This document shows, piece after piece, positions 617-62,529 of a DNA stretch of 64,000 nt. The DNA is from Candidatus Hadarchaeota archaeon (lineage in GTDB: Archaea > Hadarchaeota > Hadarchaeia > Hadarchaeales > Hadarchaeaceae). The stretch is taken from contig CAYFIY010000001.1 in assembly GCA_964343275.1 (NCBI GenBank), positions 49,683 to 113,682 of the forward strand, given 5' to 3'. Position 1 is the stretch's first letter; the number at the start of each line of letters is the position of its first letter. The position numbers were made by a program, and so were the translations under genes. Below the pieces are notes generated by a model that worked only from the letters and a program-made list of their open reading frames with translations, did not search any database and was not told the DNA's origin.

Positions 617-704
617 GCCGCCGTAGCTCAGTGGTGGAGCGATCGCTTCGTAACTACGGCGAAATAGCGATATGTCGTGGGTTCAATCCCCACCGGCGGC
701 TCCA
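617..704 (+). tRNA. tRNA-Thr(CGU) with a 13-nt canonical intron (653-665) between positions 37 and 38; CCA encoded
   Basis: Hand fold: acceptor GCCGCCG/CGGCGGC, D-stem GCTC/GAGC, anticodon stem ATCGC/GCGAT, loop TTCGTA|intron ACTACGGCGAAAT|A, T-arm GTGGG-TTCAATC-CCCAC, discriminator T then CCA. The anticodon CGT pairs with intron ACG, as in a bulge-helix-bulge (BHB) splice motif. Confidence 0.8.
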
Positions 705-17402: not shown

Positions 17403-17477
17403 GCCGCCGTGGCTCAGTGGTAGAGCGATGGTTTTGTAAACCATAGGTCGTGAGTCCAATCCTCACCGGCGGCTCCA
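17403..17477 (+). tRNA. tRNA-Thr(UGU), intron-less, CCA encoded
   Basis: Fold: GCCGCCG-TG-GCTC-AGTGGTA-GAGC-G-ATGGT-TTTGTAA-ACCAT-AGGTC-GTGAG-TCCAATC-CTCAC-CGGCGGC-T-CCA. Confidence 0.85.
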
Positions 17478-26306: not shown

Positions 26307-26389
26307 CCTGACCTAGTTAATTTTGTTTACTGCTAAATAGAAGTTGATGCCCATAAAGATTTCAAACTTTTATCCTTTCACGGATAGAA

Positions 26390-26700
26390 TTAGTTCGCAA
26401 TGAAGGGACAAACCCGTGGTAATCGAGAGCTGACGTGATCAGTGAGCGTCGGTGCATCGCTGCGGTAACACTCGAGCAGGTTCACCGATAAACACGCCAA
26501 AATTGGGTCCTTCGGGGAGTTATTGGCGGGATCGTCTAATACAATGACCATGAAGCCAACCCTGGTGTGACACAGGTGGGCATGGCCTCCGAGGAAACCC
26601 GCCATCGAGGGTTAGTGAGCGAAGTACGTCGAAAGACAGTCGATGATGCTCGCTGGTTAGTTGTGTCGGGGACATCGGGGGCCTAACTTTTTCACCGAGC
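26390..26700. ncRNA. candidate structured non-coding RNA, class unresolved
   Basis: About 55% GC island in an AT-rich divergent intergenic spacer; no credible ORF; multiple local hairpins and an enclosing helix (UCGAG...CUCGA). Confidence 0.4.
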
Positions 26701-54084: not shown

Positions 54085-55475
54085 TGTTTTTGTCTTCTAC
54101 CTTTTTCCCCTAATTTGATTTTTGCCAATAGTAGTTTGGTGACAGCCCTTGGATTTGCTCGTCCCTTTGTGATCCTGATGACCTTTCCGGTCAAGTAATT
54201 CATGGCTTCCTTTCTCCCGTGGTTATAGTCCTCAACTGCCTTGGGGTTGTCTTTAATTACCTTGGTTATAGCCGCTCTTAGTTCTGATTGATTGAGAGGG
54301 CTGATCCCGATTTTTAGCAAAATTTCCTCTGGCTCGGATGGCTCTTTTGCGAGCTCACGGAGCAAGATTTCTCCCTGTTCAGGAGTCACCCGTTTTTTCT
54401 TGACCATGCGGAGCAGTCCAGACAGCTGGGCCGGAGTGAACTTGATATCCGCAGCACGTAGCTTCATGTAATTCATAACTTTCTTCAACTTGGTTCTAAA
54501 CCATGTGGCGGTTAGATCAGGGTCGACTTCTTCTGCCACCGCTTCGAATAGATCGGCTAGCTCCCGCTCGCTGACAATGACTTCAGCGGAAGCACGGGAT
54601 ATCCGGTACTTTTCGATTAGACGCTGTTCTCTCAAGTGTGGTGGTTCAGCCATTTTGGATAGTGCAGTTTCTACTCTTCCCTTGTCCAAGGTTAGTGGAA
54701 AAATATCCGGGTCGGGAATGTATCGGTAATCCTCCTCAATCTCCTTGGTCCTCATGGGAACTGTGATCATCTGGCTTTCAAGAAACGCACGAGTTTCCCT
54801 AGCTACCGTCTCGCCACGCTTCATCTTCTCCTTCTGGCGGATTATTTCGTACTTCAGCGCCCGGTAGGCACCTTTTACCGAGTTTACGTTTTTAACCTCA
54901 ACTCTACCTCCTCCCTCAATTGAGACATTAACGTCGGCTCGCATCGCACCTCCCGCCTCGGGTCTAACTTTTCCCGTGTATTCCAAAACCATGGTGAGCA
55001 TACGAAGGAAATTTCTAGCCTCCTCTGGAGACTTCATATCCGGCTCGGTCACGATCTCGACTAAGGGCACGCCGGATCGGTTGTAGTCCACCGTACCTGC
55101 TACTGGGTCGTATTGTCCTGGGTCCTCCTCTAGGTGTAGCTCCCGTATCTTAACTCCCAGCAGCATCCCGTCTCGCGCGATGGGTAAGCTCGTTCTCTGA
55201 TACCCTGAAGGAAGATCCGGATAGTCATAATGTTTACGCTGGATATAGATTGTCTGGTCGGTGATGATTTTGCAACCGAGCATGAGTGCCATTTCGACCG
55301 CTGCCTCAACAGCTCGTTCATTCGGGGGGAGCGGCTTCGCCCCTGGAATCCCTGTGCAAATTGGACAGACATTGGTGTTGGGAGGAACATCTTGGTAGTT
55401 GGTCGAAGAATTGCAGTACATCTTGCGTTCGGTAGCTATTTGCTGATGAATCTCGAACCCTATTTTGATGTTCAT
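54081..55475 (-). CDS. gatB: aspartyl/glutamyl-tRNA(Asn/Gln) amidotransferase subunit B
   Basis: IGFEIHQQI..., CPICTGIPG motif, C-terminal YqeY-like domain. Confidence 0.88.
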   Translation of the reverse strand: MNIKIGFEIHQQIATERKMYCNSSTNYQDVPPNTNVCPICTGIPGAKPLPPNERAVEAAVEMALMLGCKIITDQTIYIQRKHYDYPDLPSGYQRTSLPIARDGMLLGVKIRELHLEEDPGQYDPVAGTVDYNRSGVPLVEIVTEPDMKSPEEARNFLRMLTMVLEYTGKVRPEAGGAMRADVNVSIEGGGRVEVKNVNSVKGAYRALKYEIIRQKEKMKRGETVARETRAFLESQMITVPMRTKEIEEDYRYIPDPDIFPLTLDKGRVETALSKMAEPPHLREQRLIEKYRISRASAEVIVSERELADLFEAVAEEVDPDLTATWFRTKLKKVMNYMKLRAADIKFTPAQLSGLLRMVKKKRVTPEQGEILLRELAKEPSEPEEILLKIGISPLNQSELRAAITKVIKDNPKAVEDYNHGRKEAMNYLTGKVIRITKGRANPRAVTKLLLAKIKLGEKGRRQKH

Positions 55476-56845
55476 CTGGTGGTCTCCAAAGCGTGCATCA
55501 CACGGAGTATTTCAAGTTCCCCAATAATCTTTCCTTGGACTTGAAGTCCTACTGGGATGCCATTGACTTCGCCCGCCTTTATCACCCCTGCACAGGTGCC
55601 AGCCAAGTTGGATGGTATGGTGAGGTAGTCATAAGCATACATTTCCATAGGTGTGAGTTTGGTTCTAATCTTGTGAGGCAGTTTTGGGACGGTTGGACCG
55701 ACTATGGCGTCAACGTGTTCCAGCGCCGTCATCAGCTCTTTGCGTATAAGTGTCCTGACTTGTAGGGCTTTTTGGTAAAATTTTCCCCAGTACTCCTTCT
55801 GGCTGATGTATCGCCCCCTTAGAATTCTTCGTAGTACCTCTTTACCGCAAGCGTCTTCGATGCGCTTTCCATACTTACGCCCGTCGAACTTTCTGGTCCC
55901 TGAGAAGAACTCAACGGAAACGATGAGATAGTATGCAAATAAACCGCGCTCGAGATTAGGAAGGCCTACTTCAACAACTTCGACTCCCAGATCCTTTAGT
56001 TTTTCAATTTCCTTGTCGATTACTTGCATTACCGACGAGTCTGTAAGTTCCACGAACTTGGGACTGACCCCGACTCTCATGCCTTTAAGCTCGCTACCAT
56101 CTAATTTCTCGGAGTAGTTTACCTTGGCAACATCAAGCATCACACACTCGTTCTGAGTTTTGCCTGCAATGGTTTCTAGCAAGAGGGCAGCTCCGACAAC
56201 ATCGGGCGCAAGTGGCCCTACTTGGTCCAAGCTCATCCCTAAATCGATTAACCCTTGCCTTGGTACTAACCCATAGGTAGGCTTGAGACCCACAACGCCA
56301 CAGTGGCTTGCTGGGTTTCTAATCGAGCCTCCCGTATCGCTTCCCAAACACATGTCGCATAACCCCGCCGCGACCGCTGCTCCGGACCCGCTACTTGATC
56401 CCCCAGGGATGCGGCCAGAGGCCGCAGGATTATCCGTGGGTCCGAAGGCGCTGGTCTCGCCACTCGAACCACACGCGAATTCGTCCATGTTATTCATCCC
56501 TATGATAATCCCCCCCTCCGCACGAACCCGCCTTACTACATCTGCGTCATATGTGGACACGTAATCATCCAAGGTGCGGGAGGCGCAGGTGGCCCTGAGT
56601 CCTTTGACGTTGATATTCGATTTTATCCCGATTACGAGCCCAGCCAGCTTCCCGACGGGTTCACCCCTTTTAATCTTAACATCTATATCTTCGGCATCGA
56701 CCATGGCGTTGGGGTTGAGTTCGATAAATGATTTGATCTTCTTATCTCGCTTTCCGATAAGCGCAAGAGAAGCCTCTACGTTTTCGGAGGCAGAGAGCTC
56801 TCCACTCCTAATCGCTGCTAGTTTGTCTACCGTTCTCTGAACCAT
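55472..56845 (-). CDS. gatA: aspartyl/glutamyl-tRNA(Asn/Gln) amidotransferase subunit A (amidase signature family)
   Basis: GGSSSGSGAAVAAGL amidase signature; overlaps gatB and gatC. Confidence 0.88.
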   Translation of the reverse strand: MVQRTVDKLAAIRSGELSASENVEASLALIGKRDKKIKSFIELNPNAMVDAEDIDVKIKRGEPVGKLAGLVIGIKSNINVKGLRATCASRTLDDYVSTYDADVVRRVRAEGGIIIGMNNMDEFACGSSGETSAFGPTDNPAASGRIPGGSSSGSGAAVAAGLCDMCLGSDTGGSIRNPASHCGVVGLKPTYGLVPRQGLIDLGMSLDQVGPLAPDVVGAALLLETIAGKTQNECVMLDVAKVNYSEKLDGSELKGMRVGVSPKFVELTDSSVMQVIDKEIEKLKDLGVEVVEVGLPNLERGLFAYYLIVSVEFFSGTRKFDGRKYGKRIEDACGKEVLRRILRGRYISQKEYWGKFYQKALQVRTLIRKELMTALEHVDAIVGPTVPKLPHKIRTKLTPMEMYAYDYLTIPSNLAGTCAGVIKAGEVNGIPVGLQVQGKIIGELEILRVMHALETTR

Positions 56846-57087
56846 TTGGCTACCTCCACCTTGAGGCTGCCCTTTTCGTCGGAGCTGGGCATGTTGGAGA
56901 TGAACCTCTCCCTGAATTCTAACTGCTTTGTTTCAGAAGTTGGTGCACCATCTGAGCGGACGATATTGTAGGCTTCTTGGCTGTAGTATGCTTCTTTTTG
57001 TTCGGGGAGGTTTTCCACTGATTTTATGAAGGATTTCACAATTTCCTCCGCGCTCCGCTCAATATCCTCAACTTTTTCGACCATCAC
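56827..57087 (-). CDS. gatC: aspartyl/glutamyl-tRNA amidotransferase subunit C (tentative)
   Basis: 86-aa acidic protein immediately upstream of and overlapping gatA (gatCAB order). Confidence 0.5.
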   Translation of the reverse strand: MMVEKVEDIERSAEEIVKSFIKSVENLPEQKEAYYSQEAYNIVRSDGAPTSETKQLEFRERFISNMPSSDEKGSLKVEVAKWFRER

Positions 57088-57214
57088 ACCCCACTTGATA
57101 TCTCCACCGTTATATGAAAAGGTTAGTAATCAAATTTGGGCAACCCAGAAGAGCTTTGTAATATGTATTGAATGTGTTTAAGGTCAAAAAGAAAATTATA
57201 ATTAATGATGAGGC

Positions 57215-58243
57215 ATGAAAAAGATCGCTAAATTTTGGGAGAAGCTGCCGAACGGGAGAGTCCAATGCTTCCTTTGTCCATGGAAGTGCGTGATAGCTTC
57301 AGGCAGATTGGGCGTGTGTAGGTCTAGAAAGAACGAAGACGGAAAGCTTCAAACTTTGGTCTACGGATCGATTGTTTCCATGGCTACCGACCCGATTGAA
57401 AAAAAGCCACTCTACCACTTCTGGCCTGGCACCGATGCCTTTTCTATAGCCGCCCCTGGATGTAACCTCAAATGTTTGCACTGTCAAAATTGGGCTATAT
57501 CTCAAGTGAACGTTGAGGAGATTCCACACGAGAACGTTGCACCAGAGCGAATAATTGAGCTTGCCAAGCGCTATAATTGCCAAGGAATCGCCCACACATA
57601 CAGTGAACCTACTATTTGGACGGAATATATGATGGACGTGGGAAAACTTGCCCATCAGGAAGGATTGTATAACGTTTACGTGACCAACGGTTACACTAGT
57701 TTACGGGCTCTGGAGGAAATTGGACCTTATCTTAACGCTTCAAATGTAGACGTCAAGGCCTTTACCGACAGCTTCTACCAGAAGATATGCGGCGTGCGTA
57801 GCATTCGTCCAACTCTTGAAACCTGCGAATGGTTGGTTGAGCATGGTAAGCATCTAGAGGTGACCTACCTGATTATCCCTAGAAAGAACGACTCAAGCGA
57901 TGAGATAAGGAACTTCACTCGCTGGGTTGTTAATGAGCTAAACACAGAAGTTCCGGTTCACTTCAGCCGGTTTTACCCGCAATATAAAATGGGAGATAGA
58001 GGAGCTACACCTGTGGAGACTCTAGAGCGTGCTGTGGGAATCGCGAAGGGGGAGGGAGTTCGCTATGTGTACATCGGAAATGCCACAGGACACAAAGGGG
58101 ACAGTACATACTGCCATAGCTGCGGGGAATTACTAATCGAGCGTTACGGGTTTGAAATTAGTCAATATACTCTCAAAGATAATAAGTGTCCTAAATGTGC
58201 TACAAAAATTAATATAGTTGGAAAATATGTCTCGAAGAAATAG
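57215..58243 (+). CDS. AmmeMemoRadiSam-system radical SAM enzyme (PflA-like activase family)
   Basis: CFLCPWKCVIASGRLGVCRSRKNEDGKL N-terminal motif, CNLKCLHCQN radical SAM CX3CX2C, C-terminal Cys cluster. Confidence 0.75.
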   Translation: MKKIAKFWEKLPNGRVQCFLCPWKCVIASGRLGVCRSRKNEDGKLQTLVYGSIVSMATDPIEKKPLYHFWPGTDAFSIAAPGCNLKCLHCQNWAISQVNVEEIPHENVAPERIIELAKRYNCQGIAHTYSEPTIWTEYMMDVGKLAHQEGLYNVYVTNGYTSLRALEEIGPYLNASNVDVKAFTDSFYQKICGVRSIRPTLETCEWLVEHGKHLEVTYLIIPRKNDSSDEIRNFTRWVVNELNTEVPVHFSRFYPQYKMGDRGATPVETLERAVGIAKGEGVRYVYIGNATGHKGDSTYCHSCGELLIERYGFEISQYTLKDNKCPKCATKINIVGKYVSKK

Positions 58244-58244
58244 T

Positions 58245-59594
58245 TTACTTGAACTTCCTTACGGCTGCCCTCAGCTCTTTCATACCTAGCTTTCCAAGCT
58301 CTTTTGCCCGCTCCTCTGAAACAGCTTCAGCGAAGCATCGGAATATCGGTTCAGTTCCGGAAGGTCTCAGCAAGAGCCAGCCATCATCGAAATTCACCCT
58401 TAGGCCGTCTGTCCGGTCCAATCTGTAATCTGAGAATTTTTGGCCGATGTTTTTTAGTATCTTCTTTTTGAGCTCGTTTGGGCACTTAATCCTCAGTTTT
58501 ATTTGAGAGTAGGTAGGAAGGGTCAGGTTCAATTCAGAAGTTTTCATGTTAGCTCGATCAAGTGCCTCAATGAACTGCGCAGCTGTCATAATCCCGTCCC
58601 TGCAGAGTAGCCAATCTGGGAATATCACACCGCCGTTTTCCTCCCCCCCTATATGGCCACCACCATTGCGAAATTCCTCTATTAGCTCTGGTTCGCCAAC
58701 CCGTGTTCGTACGACTTTGCCTTTCAGCTTCGAAGCCACGTCGTCGAGCACGGAACTTGTTGCAACCGTAGTTAATATCATGGGGTGGCGTCTTCCATGG
58801 AGATAATGAAGCGCCACAAGGGCAAAGACTCTGTCCCCGCTTAAGATTCCGCCCCGTTCATCAACGATGATAGTCCTGTCCGCGTCACCATCATGTGCTA
58901 TCCCCAAATCGGCTCTGGAGTTTACCACTGTTTTCGCGAGTTCTCCAAGATTCTCGGGAACTGTTTCGAGCTTTCTCCCAGGGAAGGTGCCGTCAAGCTG
59001 GCTGTTCATCGATATTACATCACAACCGAGTTCCCCGAGTAGGTGCGGGGTCACTAGGTTGCCGACTGCATTTGCGCAGTCCACCACCACCCTGGGTCTC
59101 CGTCTGAACTTGGGTACCCTTTTCCGGAGAGCTTCGGTGTAAGGAACTATTGTCTCAGACTCCTTAACGCGTCCTATGTCGCGCCAGTTAGTCATATTTG
59201 ATATTTTGGAGACGATGCGCTCTATTTCAGTTTCCTGTCTCCGTTGAAAACCTGCTCCTTCGCTGTCCCAGAACTTGATTCCATTGTACTCAGGGGGATT
59301 GTGCGAGGCTGTGATCATGACGCCTGCATCGCAGGAGAAGTGTTTGGTGGCAAACGAGAGGACGGGCGTAGGGATTAGGCCCAGTTTCAGGGCTTGACAA
59401 CCGCCAGCTGTCAGGCCAGCTATTAACGCGTGTTCGATCATCATGCCGGAGGTTCGGTTATCCCTACCTACAGCTATTCTCCCGCTGCCCCTCAGATGGA
59501 CAGCTAGTGCCAGTCCGAGCTCAAGCGCTAGTTGTGGAGTTAGATCTTCGTTCGCGACGCCTCGAATCCCAAATGTGCCGAAAAGCTTTGGCAT
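58245..59594 (-). CDS. glmM: phosphoglucosamine mutase / phosphohexomutase (GlmM/ManB family)
   Basis: LFGTFGIRGV..., TASHNPPEYNGIKF active-site serine loop, GDGDADR metal loop. Confidence 0.85.
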   Translation of the reverse strand: MPKLFGTFGIRGVANEDLTPQLALELGLALAVHLRGSGRIAVGRDNRTSGMMIEHALIAGLTAGGCQALKLGLIPTPVLSFATKHFSCDAGVMITASHNPPEYNGIKFWDSEGAGFQRRQETEIERIVSKISNMTNWRDIGRVKESETIVPYTEALRKRVPKFRRRPRVVVDCANAVGNLVTPHLLGELGCDVISMNSQLDGTFPGRKLETVPENLGELAKTVVNSRADLGIAHDGDADRTIIVDERGGILSGDRVFALVALHYLHGRRHPMILTTVATSSVLDDVASKLKGKVVRTRVGEPELIEEFRNGGGHIGGEENGGVIFPDWLLCRDGIMTAAQFIEALDRANMKTSELNLTLPTYSQIKLRIKCPNELKKKILKNIGQKFSDYRLDRTDGLRVNFDDGWLLLRPSGTEPIFRCFAEAVSEERAKELGKLGMKELRAAVRKFK

Positions 59595-59620
59595 GATTCA
59601 CTAGCTTCTAATTGTCGCAC

Positions 59621-59632
59621 ACGATATTAAAT
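59621..59632 (+). promoter_or_regulatory. TATA-box-like element (GATATTAAATCG) about 25-30 bp upstream of the tRNA at 59653
   Basis: AT-rich TATA-like hexamer spacing typical of archaeal tRNA promoters. Confidence 0.35.
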
Positions 59633-59652
59633 CGTGGCGTATTAATTAACTC

Positions 59653-59757
59653 GGGCCCGTGGCCAAACCAGGATAAGGCGGCAAGTGGAAACACCCGCAA
59701 GCCTTCTATCCAATCGAGGATAGCTGCAGATCGTGGGTTCGAATCCCACCGGGCCCG
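59653..59757 (+). tRNA. intron-containing tRNA gene (105-nt precursor, intron about 30 nt); isotype unresolved, intron position apparently non-canonical
   Basis: Perfect acceptor GGGCCCG/CGGGCCC plus discriminator G; D-arm GCC-AAACCAGGATAA-GGC; T-arm GTGGG-TTCGAAT-CCCAC with variable AGATC; the 47-nt middle region contains hairpin CTATCC-AATCGA-GGATAG; no CCA encoded. Confidence 0.6.
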
Positions 59758-59868
59758 TTACTCTGGATCTTGTAGTTTATCTTTATGCTTTAGTCTACCA
59801 TATTTTAAGGCTCGGAGAATATTGTAGGGGATAAAACGGCAAAAATAAGCATTATAGGCAGCGGTGTC

Positions 59869-60720
59869 GTGGGTACAATAACTGGCAGGGGTCTCAAGAA
59901 GTTAGGCAACAAATTGGTATTTTTTGATATTAGTGAAAAAAAGGCAAAGGCGCTCAGTAGATTAGGACTCCACGTCGTTGTCGATATTTCTGAAGCGGTG
60001 GAAAACTCCGAAATATCTCTAATAACTGTGCCCACCCCTACCAACGGTGGAAAAATTGACCTGAGTTACATCAAGGCAGCTATCCAAGGATTAGGTAATA
60101 GTCTGAGGCGCAAGGACAGTTACCATTTAGTGGTGGTAAAAAGTACGGTTGTTCCAACCACTACTGAAAAGGTTGTCATCCCCTTGTTGGAGAGGAGTTC
60201 CGGTAAAAAGGTCGGGAAGGCTATTGGTGTTTGTGTGAACCCAGAGTTTCTCACTGAGATTCAAAAATCTTGGACCGATGACAAGGAATTCACGAGAGAC
60301 TTCTTTAGCGAGGAGAGAATCATAATTGGTGAGGTCGACAAGAAATCTGGCGATATCATTCAGAAATTGTACAAGCCATTGAAAGTCCCCATTTTTCGAA
60401 CTAGTTTGAGGACGGCCGAGATGATAAAGTATGCCAGTAATTGCGCTTTGGCTAGTCGTATCTCCTACTGGAACGAAATCTTTTACATATGCAAAAAGAT
60501 TGGTGTGGATTCTAATTCCGTGGCTCAGTTAGTTGGTCTCGACCAACGGATAGGAAAATACGGAACAATCCACGGTAAGGCTTTCGGGGGGAAATGCCTT
60601 CCAAAGGACTTGGATGCATTTATAGCCTTTTCGAACGAAATCGGATATAAACCAAAACTCCTACAAGCTGTTGCCAAAATAAATAAGAAAATCAGGAAAG
60701 ATATAGGGGTTAGGGACTAG
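59869..60720 (+). pseudogene. UDP-glucose/GDP-mannose 6-dehydrogenase family gene, apparently degraded: no canonical start before the Rossmann motif and no C-terminal UDP-binding domain
   Basis: In-frame upstream codons (from 59809) encode KISIIGSGVVG (GxGxxG) but contain no ATG/GTG/TTG after the stop at 59806; catalytic GGKCLPKD present; ORF ends about 40 aa later (283 aa versus the usual 420-440). Confidence 0.45.
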
Positions 60721-60728
60721 GTGGCTGC

Positions 60729-61580
60729 ATGAAAGTAATCATCCCTGCTGCCGGTATGGGGACAAGACTCCTTCCCGCGACCAAGGAGCAACCGAAGGAG
60801 ATGTTGCCTCTTTTTGCCAAAACAAAGGGAGGACAACATAGCTTGAAGCCCCTGCTGCAGCTCGTCTTCGAGCAGCTCTACAGCGTGGGGTTTCGCGAGT
60901 TTTACTTCATCATAGGGAGAGAAAAGCGGGCCATAGAGGATCATTTCACACCTGAGTATGAATATGTGGAAATGCTCGAGCGCAAGAGGAAAAATGAACT
61001 GGCTGGCGAGTTGCGGAACTTCTACGATAAGATAGAAGGTTCTAAGATAGTCTGGGTCAACCAGCCGGAGCCAAGAGGATTCGGCGATGCCGTGTTAAGG
61101 GCGGCACATTTCGTTCGCGATGAGCCCGTGTTCGTTCACGCAGGCGACACCTTTGTTGTATCCGAACGAGATCGACATCTTCGGGAGTTAATCAAAACTC
61201 ATAAAAATCTAGACGCTTCTATGACTTGTCTTTTACGTGAAGTTGGGGATCCGAGGCAGTTTGGCGTGGCGGAGGTTGAAAGGATCAAGGGGGATGTCTT
61301 TAAGCTAAATAGATTAGTTGAAAAACCAACAAAACCGAAGACCAATCTAGCCATAATGCCTATTTACATCTTTGCTCCCGTCATTTTCAAGGCGCTGAAC
61401 GAGGTACGTCCAGGAAAGGGCAACGAGATTCAATTGACAGATGGCATGCAAAAGCTCATTAAAATGGGTCTAGGCACATATGCTCTCAAGATGCGTTCTA
61501 ATGATATTTGGTTAGACATCGGCACCATCGAAACATATTGGGATGCCTTAAAAGCTTCTTTTGACCACTTTGTTAGGTGA
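60729..61580 (+). CDS. galU: UTP-glucose-1-phosphate uridylyltransferase (GalU-like sugar nucleotidyltransferase)
   Basis: KVIIPAAGMGTRLLPATKEQPKEMLP signature. Confidence 0.8.
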   Translation: MKVIIPAAGMGTRLLPATKEQPKEMLPLFAKTKGGQHSLKPLLQLVFEQLYSVGFREFYFIIGREKRAIEDHFTPEYEYVEMLERKRKNELAGELRNFYDKIEGSKIVWVNQPEPRGFGDAVLRAAHFVRDEPVFVHAGDTFVVSERDRHLRELIKTHKNLDASMTCLLREVGDPRQFGVAEVERIKGDVFKLNRLVEKPTKPKTNLAIMPIYIFAPVIFKALNEVRPGKGNEIQLTDGMQKLIKMGLGTYALKMRSNDIWLDIGTIETYWDALKASFDHFVR

Positions 61581-62529
61581 GAAATTGAAATTAAATAAAT
61601 TAGCCTTGGTCACAGGTGGGGCGGGTTTTGTAGGATCATGGCTATGCGATCGACTTCTTGAGATGGGTTTACATGTAATATGTGTGGACAACCTTGCTTC
61701 GGGAAACAGGCGAAATATAGCCAACCTCTTTACAAACAAAAAGTTCAAGTTCGTGGAGTACGATGTAACAAAACCGATGAATATACGGGGCGCTGTAAAC
61801 TACGTTTTTAATCTGGCGTCTCGAGCCTCACCGGTAGACTTTAAGAAATATGCGATTGATATTTTGCTGGCTAATTCTACTGGGACTCGAAATGCGCTGG
61901 AATTAGCTAGGCAAAAGAAGGCAAGACTTCTGTTGGCTTCTTCTTCCGAGGTGTATGGGGATCCTCTCGAACATCCTCAAAAGGAGGAGTATAGAGGGAA
62001 CGTCAGTACCACTGGTCCAAGATCACCCTACGATGAAGCAAAGCGGTTTGGAGAGGCGCTTGCATCCGCTTATCATAAGACTCATGGGATGGACATCAGA
62101 ATCGCCCGTATCTTTAACACCTATGGGCCTAGGATGAGAAATGATGATGGACGGGTAATCCCAAATTTTATCACACAAGCTCTGAAAGGACGACCAATTA
62201 CCGTTTACGGGGATGGCTCCCAGACTAGGTCTTTTTGCTATATCGATGATCTGATTGATGGAATTTCGAAACTAATGTTTGTGGATGGATTGGGTGGCGA
62301 AGTGGTTAACTTGGGAAATCCAGATGAAATCAACGTCTTAGAGGTAGCAAAACTTGTAAAAAAATTAACTGGTTCAACGTCAAAAATAGTTTTTAAACAT
62401 TTACCCCAGGATGATCCCATTCGTAGAAGGCCAGAGCTATCTAGGGCCAAGAGACTTTTTGGTTGGAAACCTGCTGTATCGTTAGTGGAGGGGCTTGGAA
62501 AAACTATAGAGTACTCTCAAATGAAGTGA
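61561..62529 (+). CDS. uxs: UDP-glucuronate decarboxylase (UDP-xylose synthase; short-chain dehydrogenase/reductase (SDR) family)
   Basis: VTGGAGFVGS, SSSEVYGDP, YDEAKR (YxxxK), RIARIFNTYGPRM, TVYGDGSQTRSFCYIDDL: all UXS hallmarks. Confidence 0.85.
   Translation: MTTLLGEKLKLNKLALVTGGAGFVGSWLCDRLLEMGLHVICVDNLASGNRRNIANLFTNKKFKFVEYDVTKPMNIRGAVNYVFNLASRASPVDFKKYAIDILLANSTGTRNALELARQKKARLLLASSSEVYGDPLEHPQKEEYRGNVSTTGPRSPYDEAKRFGEALASAYHKTHGMDIRIARIFNTYGPRMRNDDGRVIPNFITQALKGRPITVYGDGSQTRSFCYIDDLIDGISKLMFVDGLGGEVVNLGNPDEINVLEVAKLVKKLTGSTSKIVFKHLPQDDPIRRRPELSRAKRLFGWKPAVSLVEGLGKTIEYSQMK

Follow-up and report, generated by a model that had tools for sequence, protein, structure and literature searches.

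Here we report that the locus at positions 59653-59757 of the window (the whole 64-kb stretch of DNA that was analysed) is very probably, at about 90%, a functional tRNA-Arg(UCU) gene of a member of the Hadarchaeota (Hadesarchaea) interrupted by two short, protein-spliced introns of the BHB type. One intron of 17 nt lies at the non-canonical position 29/30 and another of 13 nt at the canonical position 37/38, and it is because of this double interruption that the gene will not fold with a single intron. At the level of sequence, the exon–intron boundaries can be read from orthologues that naturally lack the introns, and the conservation and covariation of the BHB helices from the alignment of those that carry them. 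The chief value of the result is annotation, as it assigns to the locus a tRNA for the AGA and AGG arginine codons; since ARAGORN misses the gene and its Rfam score is modest, the genome could wrongly seem to be without tRNA-Arg(UCU).

Detection of the gene and enumeration of its introns

A cmscan search against Rfam returned a full-length RF00005 match on the forward strand (42.9 bits, E 8.8e-6), in which the acceptor, D and T arms are normal and 41 nt are inserted within a 3-bp remnant of the anticodon stem. The initial annotation had described a tRNA gene with textbook acceptor, D and T arms at this place, which the match bears out. ARAGORN made no call on the unspliced gene, either with or without its intron option; when the intron option was combined with lowered thresholds it returned nothing, or spurious Leu and Ser calls in odd registers. 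The interrupted gene is not a product of chance, as the same locus in many Hadarchaeota genomes carries the same interrupted gene.

Candidate introns were enumerated as one- and two-segment deletions in the 47 nt that separate position 26 from the variable loop, with the precursor numbered from its first base. Every single 30-nt deletion in this segment failed to give four or more stem pairs together with U33. Two deletions converge on one family of solutions, in which all 5/5 stem pairs form, U33 is in place and position 37 holds a purine, namely GCAGC-CUUCUA(A/U)-GCUGC with 17 + 13 nt removed. The clean solution takes out precursor positions 32-48 (17 nt) and 57-69 (13 nt) and leaves GCAGC-CUUCUAA-GCUGC, that is, a fully paired anticodon stem of 5 bp that closes a 7-nt loop with U33 and A37; the predicted mature junctions are GGCGGCA^GCCUUCUA^AGCUGC. 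Removal of both introns generates a 75-nt cloverleaf that ARAGORN calls tRNA-Arg(tct), with UCU at mature positions 34-36, an assignment that accords with the orthology of the locus to Arg(UCU) genes. When intron 1 alone is removed, the result of ARAGORN -i is again Arg(tct), now carrying a 13-nt intron at 37/38. The A at D-loop position 20 (precursor A21) fits the known identity element for ArgRS. Coordinates of the gene and its parts are collected in Table 1.

The enumeration agrees with the initial annotation in that no fold with one 37/38 intron exists. It also vindicates in part the proposal of a non-canonical intron: 29/30 is one of the positions that had been named, and what had been taken for one intron of about 30 nt or an unusual fold resolves into 17 nt at that site and 13 nt at 37/38. 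A standard fold with a 37/38 intron had been named as the outcome that would count against the proposal; such a fold does emerge, as Arg(tct) with the 13-nt intron, only once intron 1 has been removed, so that the objection carries half its weight.

Table 1. Features of the tRNA-Arg(UCU) locus in window coordinates
Feature	Position	Strand	Remarks
Probable archaeal TATA box GATATTAAATC	59623..59633	+	roughly -30 to -20 relative to the start of the tRNA
Complete tRNA-Arg(UCU) gene (probable)	59653..59757	+	105-nt precursor body, 3' CCA not encoded; RF00005, ARAGORN on the spliced form
Exon 1	59653..59683	+	tRNA positions 1-29: acceptor 5' strand, D-arm, position 26, anticodon-stem 27-29; enumeration, alignment with intronless orthologues
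BHB-1 central helix, exon strand GCGG	59678..59681	+	tRNA positions 24-27, half of the D-stem 3' strand borrowed; pairs with CCGC
Intron 1, 17 nt AGTGGAAACACCCGCAA	59684..59700	+	between tRNA positions 29/30, non-canonical; sole deletion restoring GCAGC/GCUGC
BHB-1 inner helix h' GUG/CAC with GAAA loop	59685..59694	+	within intron 1; G33-U34-G35 with C40-A41-C42
BHB-1 central helix, intron strand CCGC	59695..59698	+	G26-C27-G28-G29 paired with C43-C44-G45-C46
Exon 2 GCCTTCTA	59701..59708	+	tRNA positions 30-37; invariant in 21/21 aligned orthologues
BHB-2 central helix, exon strand CUUC	59703..59706	+	loop positions 32-35; pairs with GAGG, 4/4
Anticodon TCT (UCU; AGA/AGG codons)	59705..59707	+	ARAGORN on the spliced sequence
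Intron 2, 13 nt TCCAATCGAGGAT	59709..59721	+	canonical 37/38; holds the CCA that hinted at tRNA-Trp; ARAGORN -i
BHB-2 central helix, intron strand GAGG	59716..59719	+	G64-A65-G66-G67
Exon 3	59722..59757	+	tRNA positions 38-73: A38, anticodon-stem 3' strand, variable loop, T-arm, acceptor 3' strand, discriminator G73

BHB motifs at the two introns

The strict archaeal splicing motif is a 3-4-3 structure denoted hBHBh', in which a 4-bp helix stands between two 3-nt bulges, and relaxed HBh' and hBH forms exist (PMC3239211, from which our motif definitions are taken). The 3-4-3 geometry is present at both introns, each with 4/4 pairs in the central helix and with the splice site after the second bulge nucleotide. 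In the standard geometry cleavage follows this second nucleotide. At intron 1 the bulges are C30-A31|A32 and A47-A48|G49, the inner helix h' comprises 3 bp, and the outer helix h consists, in the lineage of the window, of one G25-C50 pair only. The precursor must refold locally, because bases of BHB-1 are taken from the D-stem (half of its 3' strand) and from the top end of the anticodon stem. At intron 2 the CUUC/GAGG helix is flanked by the bulges U55-A56|U57 and A68-U69|A70; the outer helix is the anticodon stem itself, of 3 bp in the precursor and 5 bp once intron 1 is gone, and h' has 0 bp and consists of the loop only, which corresponds to the relaxed hBH/BHL form (PMC3239211). The strict hBHBh' arrangement is found at neither intron, intron 1 being short of h and intron 2 being without h'; the two motifs fall into the published relaxed classes HBh' and hBH (PMC3239211), and class membership therefore holds in the relaxed sense only. 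Both BHBs would be poor substrates for the classical strict alpha4 enzyme.

The BHB conformer of the precursor has a calculated energy of -35.1 kcal/mol, compared with -44.6 kcal/mol for the MFE structure, and the central-helix pairs of BHB-1 have a pairing probability of about 3%. As the BHB conformer is not the thermodynamic optimum, an enzyme or an alternative fold must select it, and for the same reason we rely on comparative evidence and not on folding energy. The MFE fold itself (28-30/49-51, 33-36/43-46 and a hairpin 54-59/66-71) was rejected since it is broken in orthologues, with 6-9 of 15 unpaired at key pairs. A local-optimum fold that combines AAGGC/GCCUU with G29-C46 and C30-G45 was likewise discarded: its 2-bp helix fails in two orthologous loci (L030 and L007), and the splice sites do not lie in bulges. 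The AAGGC/GCCUU strands themselves reside in exons that do not vary.

Orthologous loci and the presence or absence of introns

A collection of species-representative genomes was scanned with a pattern that fixed only the acceptor stem, CTTCTA and the T-loop, and at least 119 archaeal tRNA-Arg(UCU) loci were matched, the extracted genes ranging from 73 to 114 nt. The proteins that flank the gene in the window, GatA, a radical-SAM protein and a GlmM-like phosphomutase, have counterparts of 60-78% identity in the same order beside the tRNA in Hadarchaeota/Hadesarchaea MAGs. This order of gatA - radical SAM - glmM-like - tRNA-Arg (window 55472-62529) is shared with L088, L105, L108, L063, L014, L015 and others, from subsurface and hydrothermal Hadesarchaea MAGs. 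Conserved gene order and this degree of identity together support both the placement of the window in the Hadarchaeota and the positional orthology of the tRNA loci. The window also matches the TARA Oceans scaffold TARA_SAMEA2620113_METAG-scaffold_836, an open-ocean survey being an unexpected source for Hadarchaeota.

Within the Hadarchaeota the gene occurs without introns (e.g. L018, L051, L014, L063, L011), with intron 1 only (L076, L088, L090, L110, L115, L116, L030) and with both introns (L015, L019, L038, L039, L092, L095, L105, L108 and the window). In a MAFFT alignment both insertions stand out as clean blocks at exactly the predicted boundaries; intron 1 is a clean gap in 6 intronless orthologues and intron 2 in 12 orthologues. 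The predicted spliced product of the window gene differs by 2 nt from the intronless L018/L051, and spliced L015 is identical to the intronless L014 and L063. A38, the base expected from splicing at 37/38 (CTTCTAAGC), is present in every intronless orthologue among the matches listed. The intronless orthologues may hence serve as natural controls for the exon junctions, A38 included.

On the orthologue alignment (A1) the BHB model is 99.3% paired and both central helices are 100% paired; sliding the BHB partners by 1-3 columns lowers the pairing to 32-55%. The central helix of BHB-1 is fully paired in 15/15 aligned orthologues that bear intron 1, and paired 4/4 in all 22 introns after position 29 among the matches listed. 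The variants seen are a change of CCGC to CCGU, giving a G-U pair (L092, L008, L069, L057), and a GCGU/GCGU helix in L077 (Bathyarchaeia MAG). The inner helix h' of BHB-1 has changes on both sides at 2/3 pairs across orthologues (UA/CG/AU; CG/GC/UA/UG). Because the exon strands are almost invariant, the support for the central helices consists mostly of conservation and one-sided G-U or A-U changes and not of full covariation. The motifs are thus conserved or covarying in the orthologues, and the two introns are independently present or absent.

Introns after position 29 are also found, among the matches listed, in Bathyarchaeia, Geothermarchaeota/Thermoprotei and an uncultured Thermococci MAG, with minimal 12-nt examples in Thermoprotei (L008) and Geothermarchaeota (L069) MAGs; a Woesearchaeote carries a nearby intron at 28/29 rather than 29/30. 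One tentative interpretation, which we consider possible and still somewhat doubtful, is that a single ancient intron, inherited or exchanged across several archaeal phyla, may underlie the 29/30 interruption of tRNA-Arg(UCU) and its fixed GCGG/CCGC helix, and that this intron was repeatedly and precisely lost in the Hadarchaeota, the repeated precise loss being suggested by exons that are identical with and without introns. If true, the Hadarchaeota would represent a natural system for the gain and loss of tRNA introns, and would offer a setting in which to ask whether non-canonical and relaxed BHBs are really processed by an endonuclease of the alpha4 type that carries an L3 loop.

Several other loci recovered in the scan have peculiarities of their own. 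The Arg(UCU) gene of L017 (Baldrarchaeota) harbours an 18-nt D-loop intron after about position 20, with a central helix CAGG/CCUG, in addition to a 14-nt 37/38 intron. The 114-nt gene of L111 (Thermofilales) has one upstream insertion and a second one 3' of the anticodon loop, and the simple two-site model does not resolve its layout. The Arg(UCU) genes of L027 and L031 (labelled Chloroflexi/Chloroflexota) and L074 (labelled Helicobacteraceae) do not differ in sequence from the Arg(UCU) genes found in a Candidatus Iainarchaeum MAG (L043) or in Thermococcus MAGs, which suggests that these loci lie on archaeal contigs mis-binned into bacterial MAGs.

Alternative interpretations

One rival reading, towards which the initial annotation inclined, posits only one non-canonical intron, some 30 nt long and folded into an unusual BHB, in what may be a tRNA-Trp(CCA); we regard it as scarcely credible. 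The motifs on which it was built are indeed present in the precursor: GCGGC at 26-30, AAGGC 23-27/GCCTT 49-53, CTATCC/GGATAG 54-59/66-71 and CCA at 58-60, and both the stable hairpin CUAUCC/GGAUAG and the AAGGC/GCCUU pairing appear in MFE folds. The GCGGC that had been seen to overlap the D-stem does matter, its GCGG being the exon strand of the BHB-1 central helix, and the overlap was observed because one half of the D-stem 3' strand is recruited into BHB-1 as the precursor refolds. The hairpin, offered as an alternative pairing, is not conserved, its A-U pair being kept in 1/9 orthologues (pair 57-72, 1/9; pair 58-71, 6/9). The CCA lies inside intron 2, which 12 orthologues lack, no deletion scheme with CCA as anticodon gives 5 stem pairs (the best being a 4-bp stem), and the anticodon loop of the intronless orthologues reads CUUCUAA; the supposed likeness to tRNA-Trp accordingly gives way to Arg(UCU), as called by ARAGORN on the spliced form. 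A single intron is further at odds with the failure of every 30-nt deletion to give at least four stem pairs with U33, and with two insertions that come and go independently among orthologues. Nor do we favour a decaying pseudogene whose anticodon arm has acquired insertions and from which no working tRNA is made, a very improbable reading for which the modest 42.9 bits, the failure of ARAGORN on the unspliced gene and a BHB fold about 9.5 kcal/mol above the MFE might be cited. Decay is hard to reconcile with exons that are nearly invariant, with intron loops that vary and yet keep the BHB pairing through compensatory changes, and with insertions that both have the exact 3-4-3 geometry. Conservation across Hadarchaeota also extends to the locus, to the order of its genes and to a TATA-like element ahead of the tRNA, and each orthologous locus, counting loci only, has one Arg(UCU) gene.

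The remaining alternative concerns the register of the two introns within the same gene: intron 2 might be cut one base further 3' (38/39, leaving U38 and not A38), or intron 1 might lie at 28/29. On sequence alone the boundaries are ambiguous (A|A...A|A; T...A), CUUCUAA and CUUCUAU both having 5/5 stems in the enumeration, and an alternative 4-bp helix UUCU/AGGA can be read directly from the sequence. The intronless orthologues among the matches listed nevertheless all have A38, and a cut at 38/39 would place G39 in the bulge and break the 31-39 pair. A 28/29 cut, read from the sequence with the same BHB geometry, would create a G-G mismatch in the central helix. Shifted boundaries are on these grounds most unlikely, and we retain the tRNA-Arg(UCU) gene with introns at 29/30 and 37/38.

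Proposed expression and processing

Transcription of the gene would probably be driven by a conserved TATA box about 25 nt upstream, an RTATTAAATC-like element being found some 20-30 nt upstream of the tRNA in most of the Hadarchaeota orthologues examined, the window included. A scan for sigma-70 promoters and intrinsic terminators was empty and is not relevant to archaea. We infer the cleavage and ligation steps, the enzyme responsible and the order of splicing as follows. For removal of intron 1, positions 24-27 (GCGG) would give up their places in the D-stem and at the upper end of the anticodon stem and pair instead with the CCGC close to the 3' boundary of the intron, and cleavage would occur in the bulges CA|A and AA|G that flank the 4-bp helix, with the GUG/CAC-GAAA hairpin as the inner helix. 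Intron 2 would adopt the normal arrangement, with the CUUC/GAGG helix, bulges UA|U and AU|A and the anticodon stem outside. EndA would cut at four sites, and an RNA ligase would join exons of 31 + 8 + 36 nt into the 75-nt tRNA. Intron 1 probably goes out before intron 2 or independently of it, since BHB-2 has its full outer helix of 5 bp only in a precursor from which intron 1 is gone; a similar reason underlies the iterative removal of introns in tRNAscan-SE 2.0 (PMC8450103). Since the window gene does not encode the 3' CCA, this would be added after splicing. Most Hadarchaeota orthologues encode CCA right after the discriminator; the window gene (TTA) and a few others do not, and the trait varies in the phylum.

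As to the endonuclease, Hadesarchaea are described by Kaneta et al. (2018; PMC5829648) as having an alpha4 EndA with an L3 loop, which is associated there with increased tRNA gene disruption. Such an alpha4+L3 EndA would be the expected partner for the 29/30 intron and the relaxed hBH intron. A weak search of the 64-kb window for an EndA-like ORF, with an approximate M. jannaschii query, yielded nothing significant.

Other RNAs in the window

An Rfam scan of the window for hidden tRNAs and sRNAs returned only three tRNAs and two sub-threshold matches at chance level. The gene at 617-704 (+) is called tRNA-Tyr(gta) by ARAGORN at default settings and is really a tRNA-Thr(CGU), interrupted at the canonical 37/38 site by 13 nt (ACTACGGCGAAAT), its BHB central helix UUCG/CGAA being paired 4/4; its acceptor stem and U73 are common to the tRNA-Thr(UGU) at 17403-17474, and it encodes a 3' CCA (702-704), unlike the Arg gene of the window. 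At 26361-26539 (+) a weak match to HgcG/Pab40, an archaeal H/ACA RNA (19.3 bits, E 0.33, where the gathering score is 77), is probably due to chance.

Comparison with known archaeal tRNA introns

Archaeal tRNA genes can possess up to three introns, whose detection requires iterative intron removal as implemented in tRNAscan-SE 2.0 (PMC8450103). There is ample documentation of genes with several introns, some of them non-canonically placed, for the most part from Thermoproteales and Thaumarchaeota (PMC4033280, PMC4090602, PMC8450103); the original descriptions are, as far as these papers cite them, those of Marck & Grosjean (2003) and Sugahara et al. (2007/2008). The gene in the window resembles the multi-intron tRNAs of Thermoproteota and Thaumarchaeota in the small size of its introns (12-20 nt) and in their placement, one non-canonically within the anticodon stem and the other at 37/38, in having a 3-4-3 BHB for each intron with an alternative precursor fold needed for the non-canonical motif, and in being missed by standard finders unless introns are iteratively removed. 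It differs from them in its host, as the Hadarchaeota stand within or near the Euryarchaeota and not in TACK. With the disrupted tRNAs of Hadesarchaea noted by Kaneta et al. (2018; PMC5829648) it shares the phylum, the window representing a different, marine (TARA Oceans) member.

Closer parallels can be drawn for the individual introns. Intron 2 and the intron of the tRNA-Thr(CGU) at 617-701 of the window both lie at 37/38, pair loop positions 32-35 with the intron and have 3-nt bulges; intron 2 is without h', whereas the h' of the Thr intron is small and capped by a UACG loop. Strict hBHBh' forms occur among Desulfurococcales Arg(UCU) genes, in contrast to the relaxed hBH of intron 2. The intron of euryarchaeal tRNA-Trp, the family to which the likeness seen in the initial annotation would lead, encodes a box C/D guide RNA. 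That gene and ours are both archaeal intron-bearing tRNAs, ours having the anticodon UCU and introns of 17 and 13 nt; a C/D-box guide RNA in these introns was considered and rejected, as they are too short and on direct reading contain no RUGAUGA or CUGA boxes. To our knowledge the 29/30 intron of Hadarchaeota tRNA-Arg(UCU) and the variation in its presence have not been individually described. The gene is a further case of a known archaeal type, with no new intron type, fold or mechanism; it provides a clear and comparatively well-supported example, from outside TACK, of a tRNA gene that combines a non-canonical with a canonical intron, and the precise presence or absence of the two introns from one close relative to the next is pertinent to the published idea that tRNA disruption tracks endonuclease specificity.
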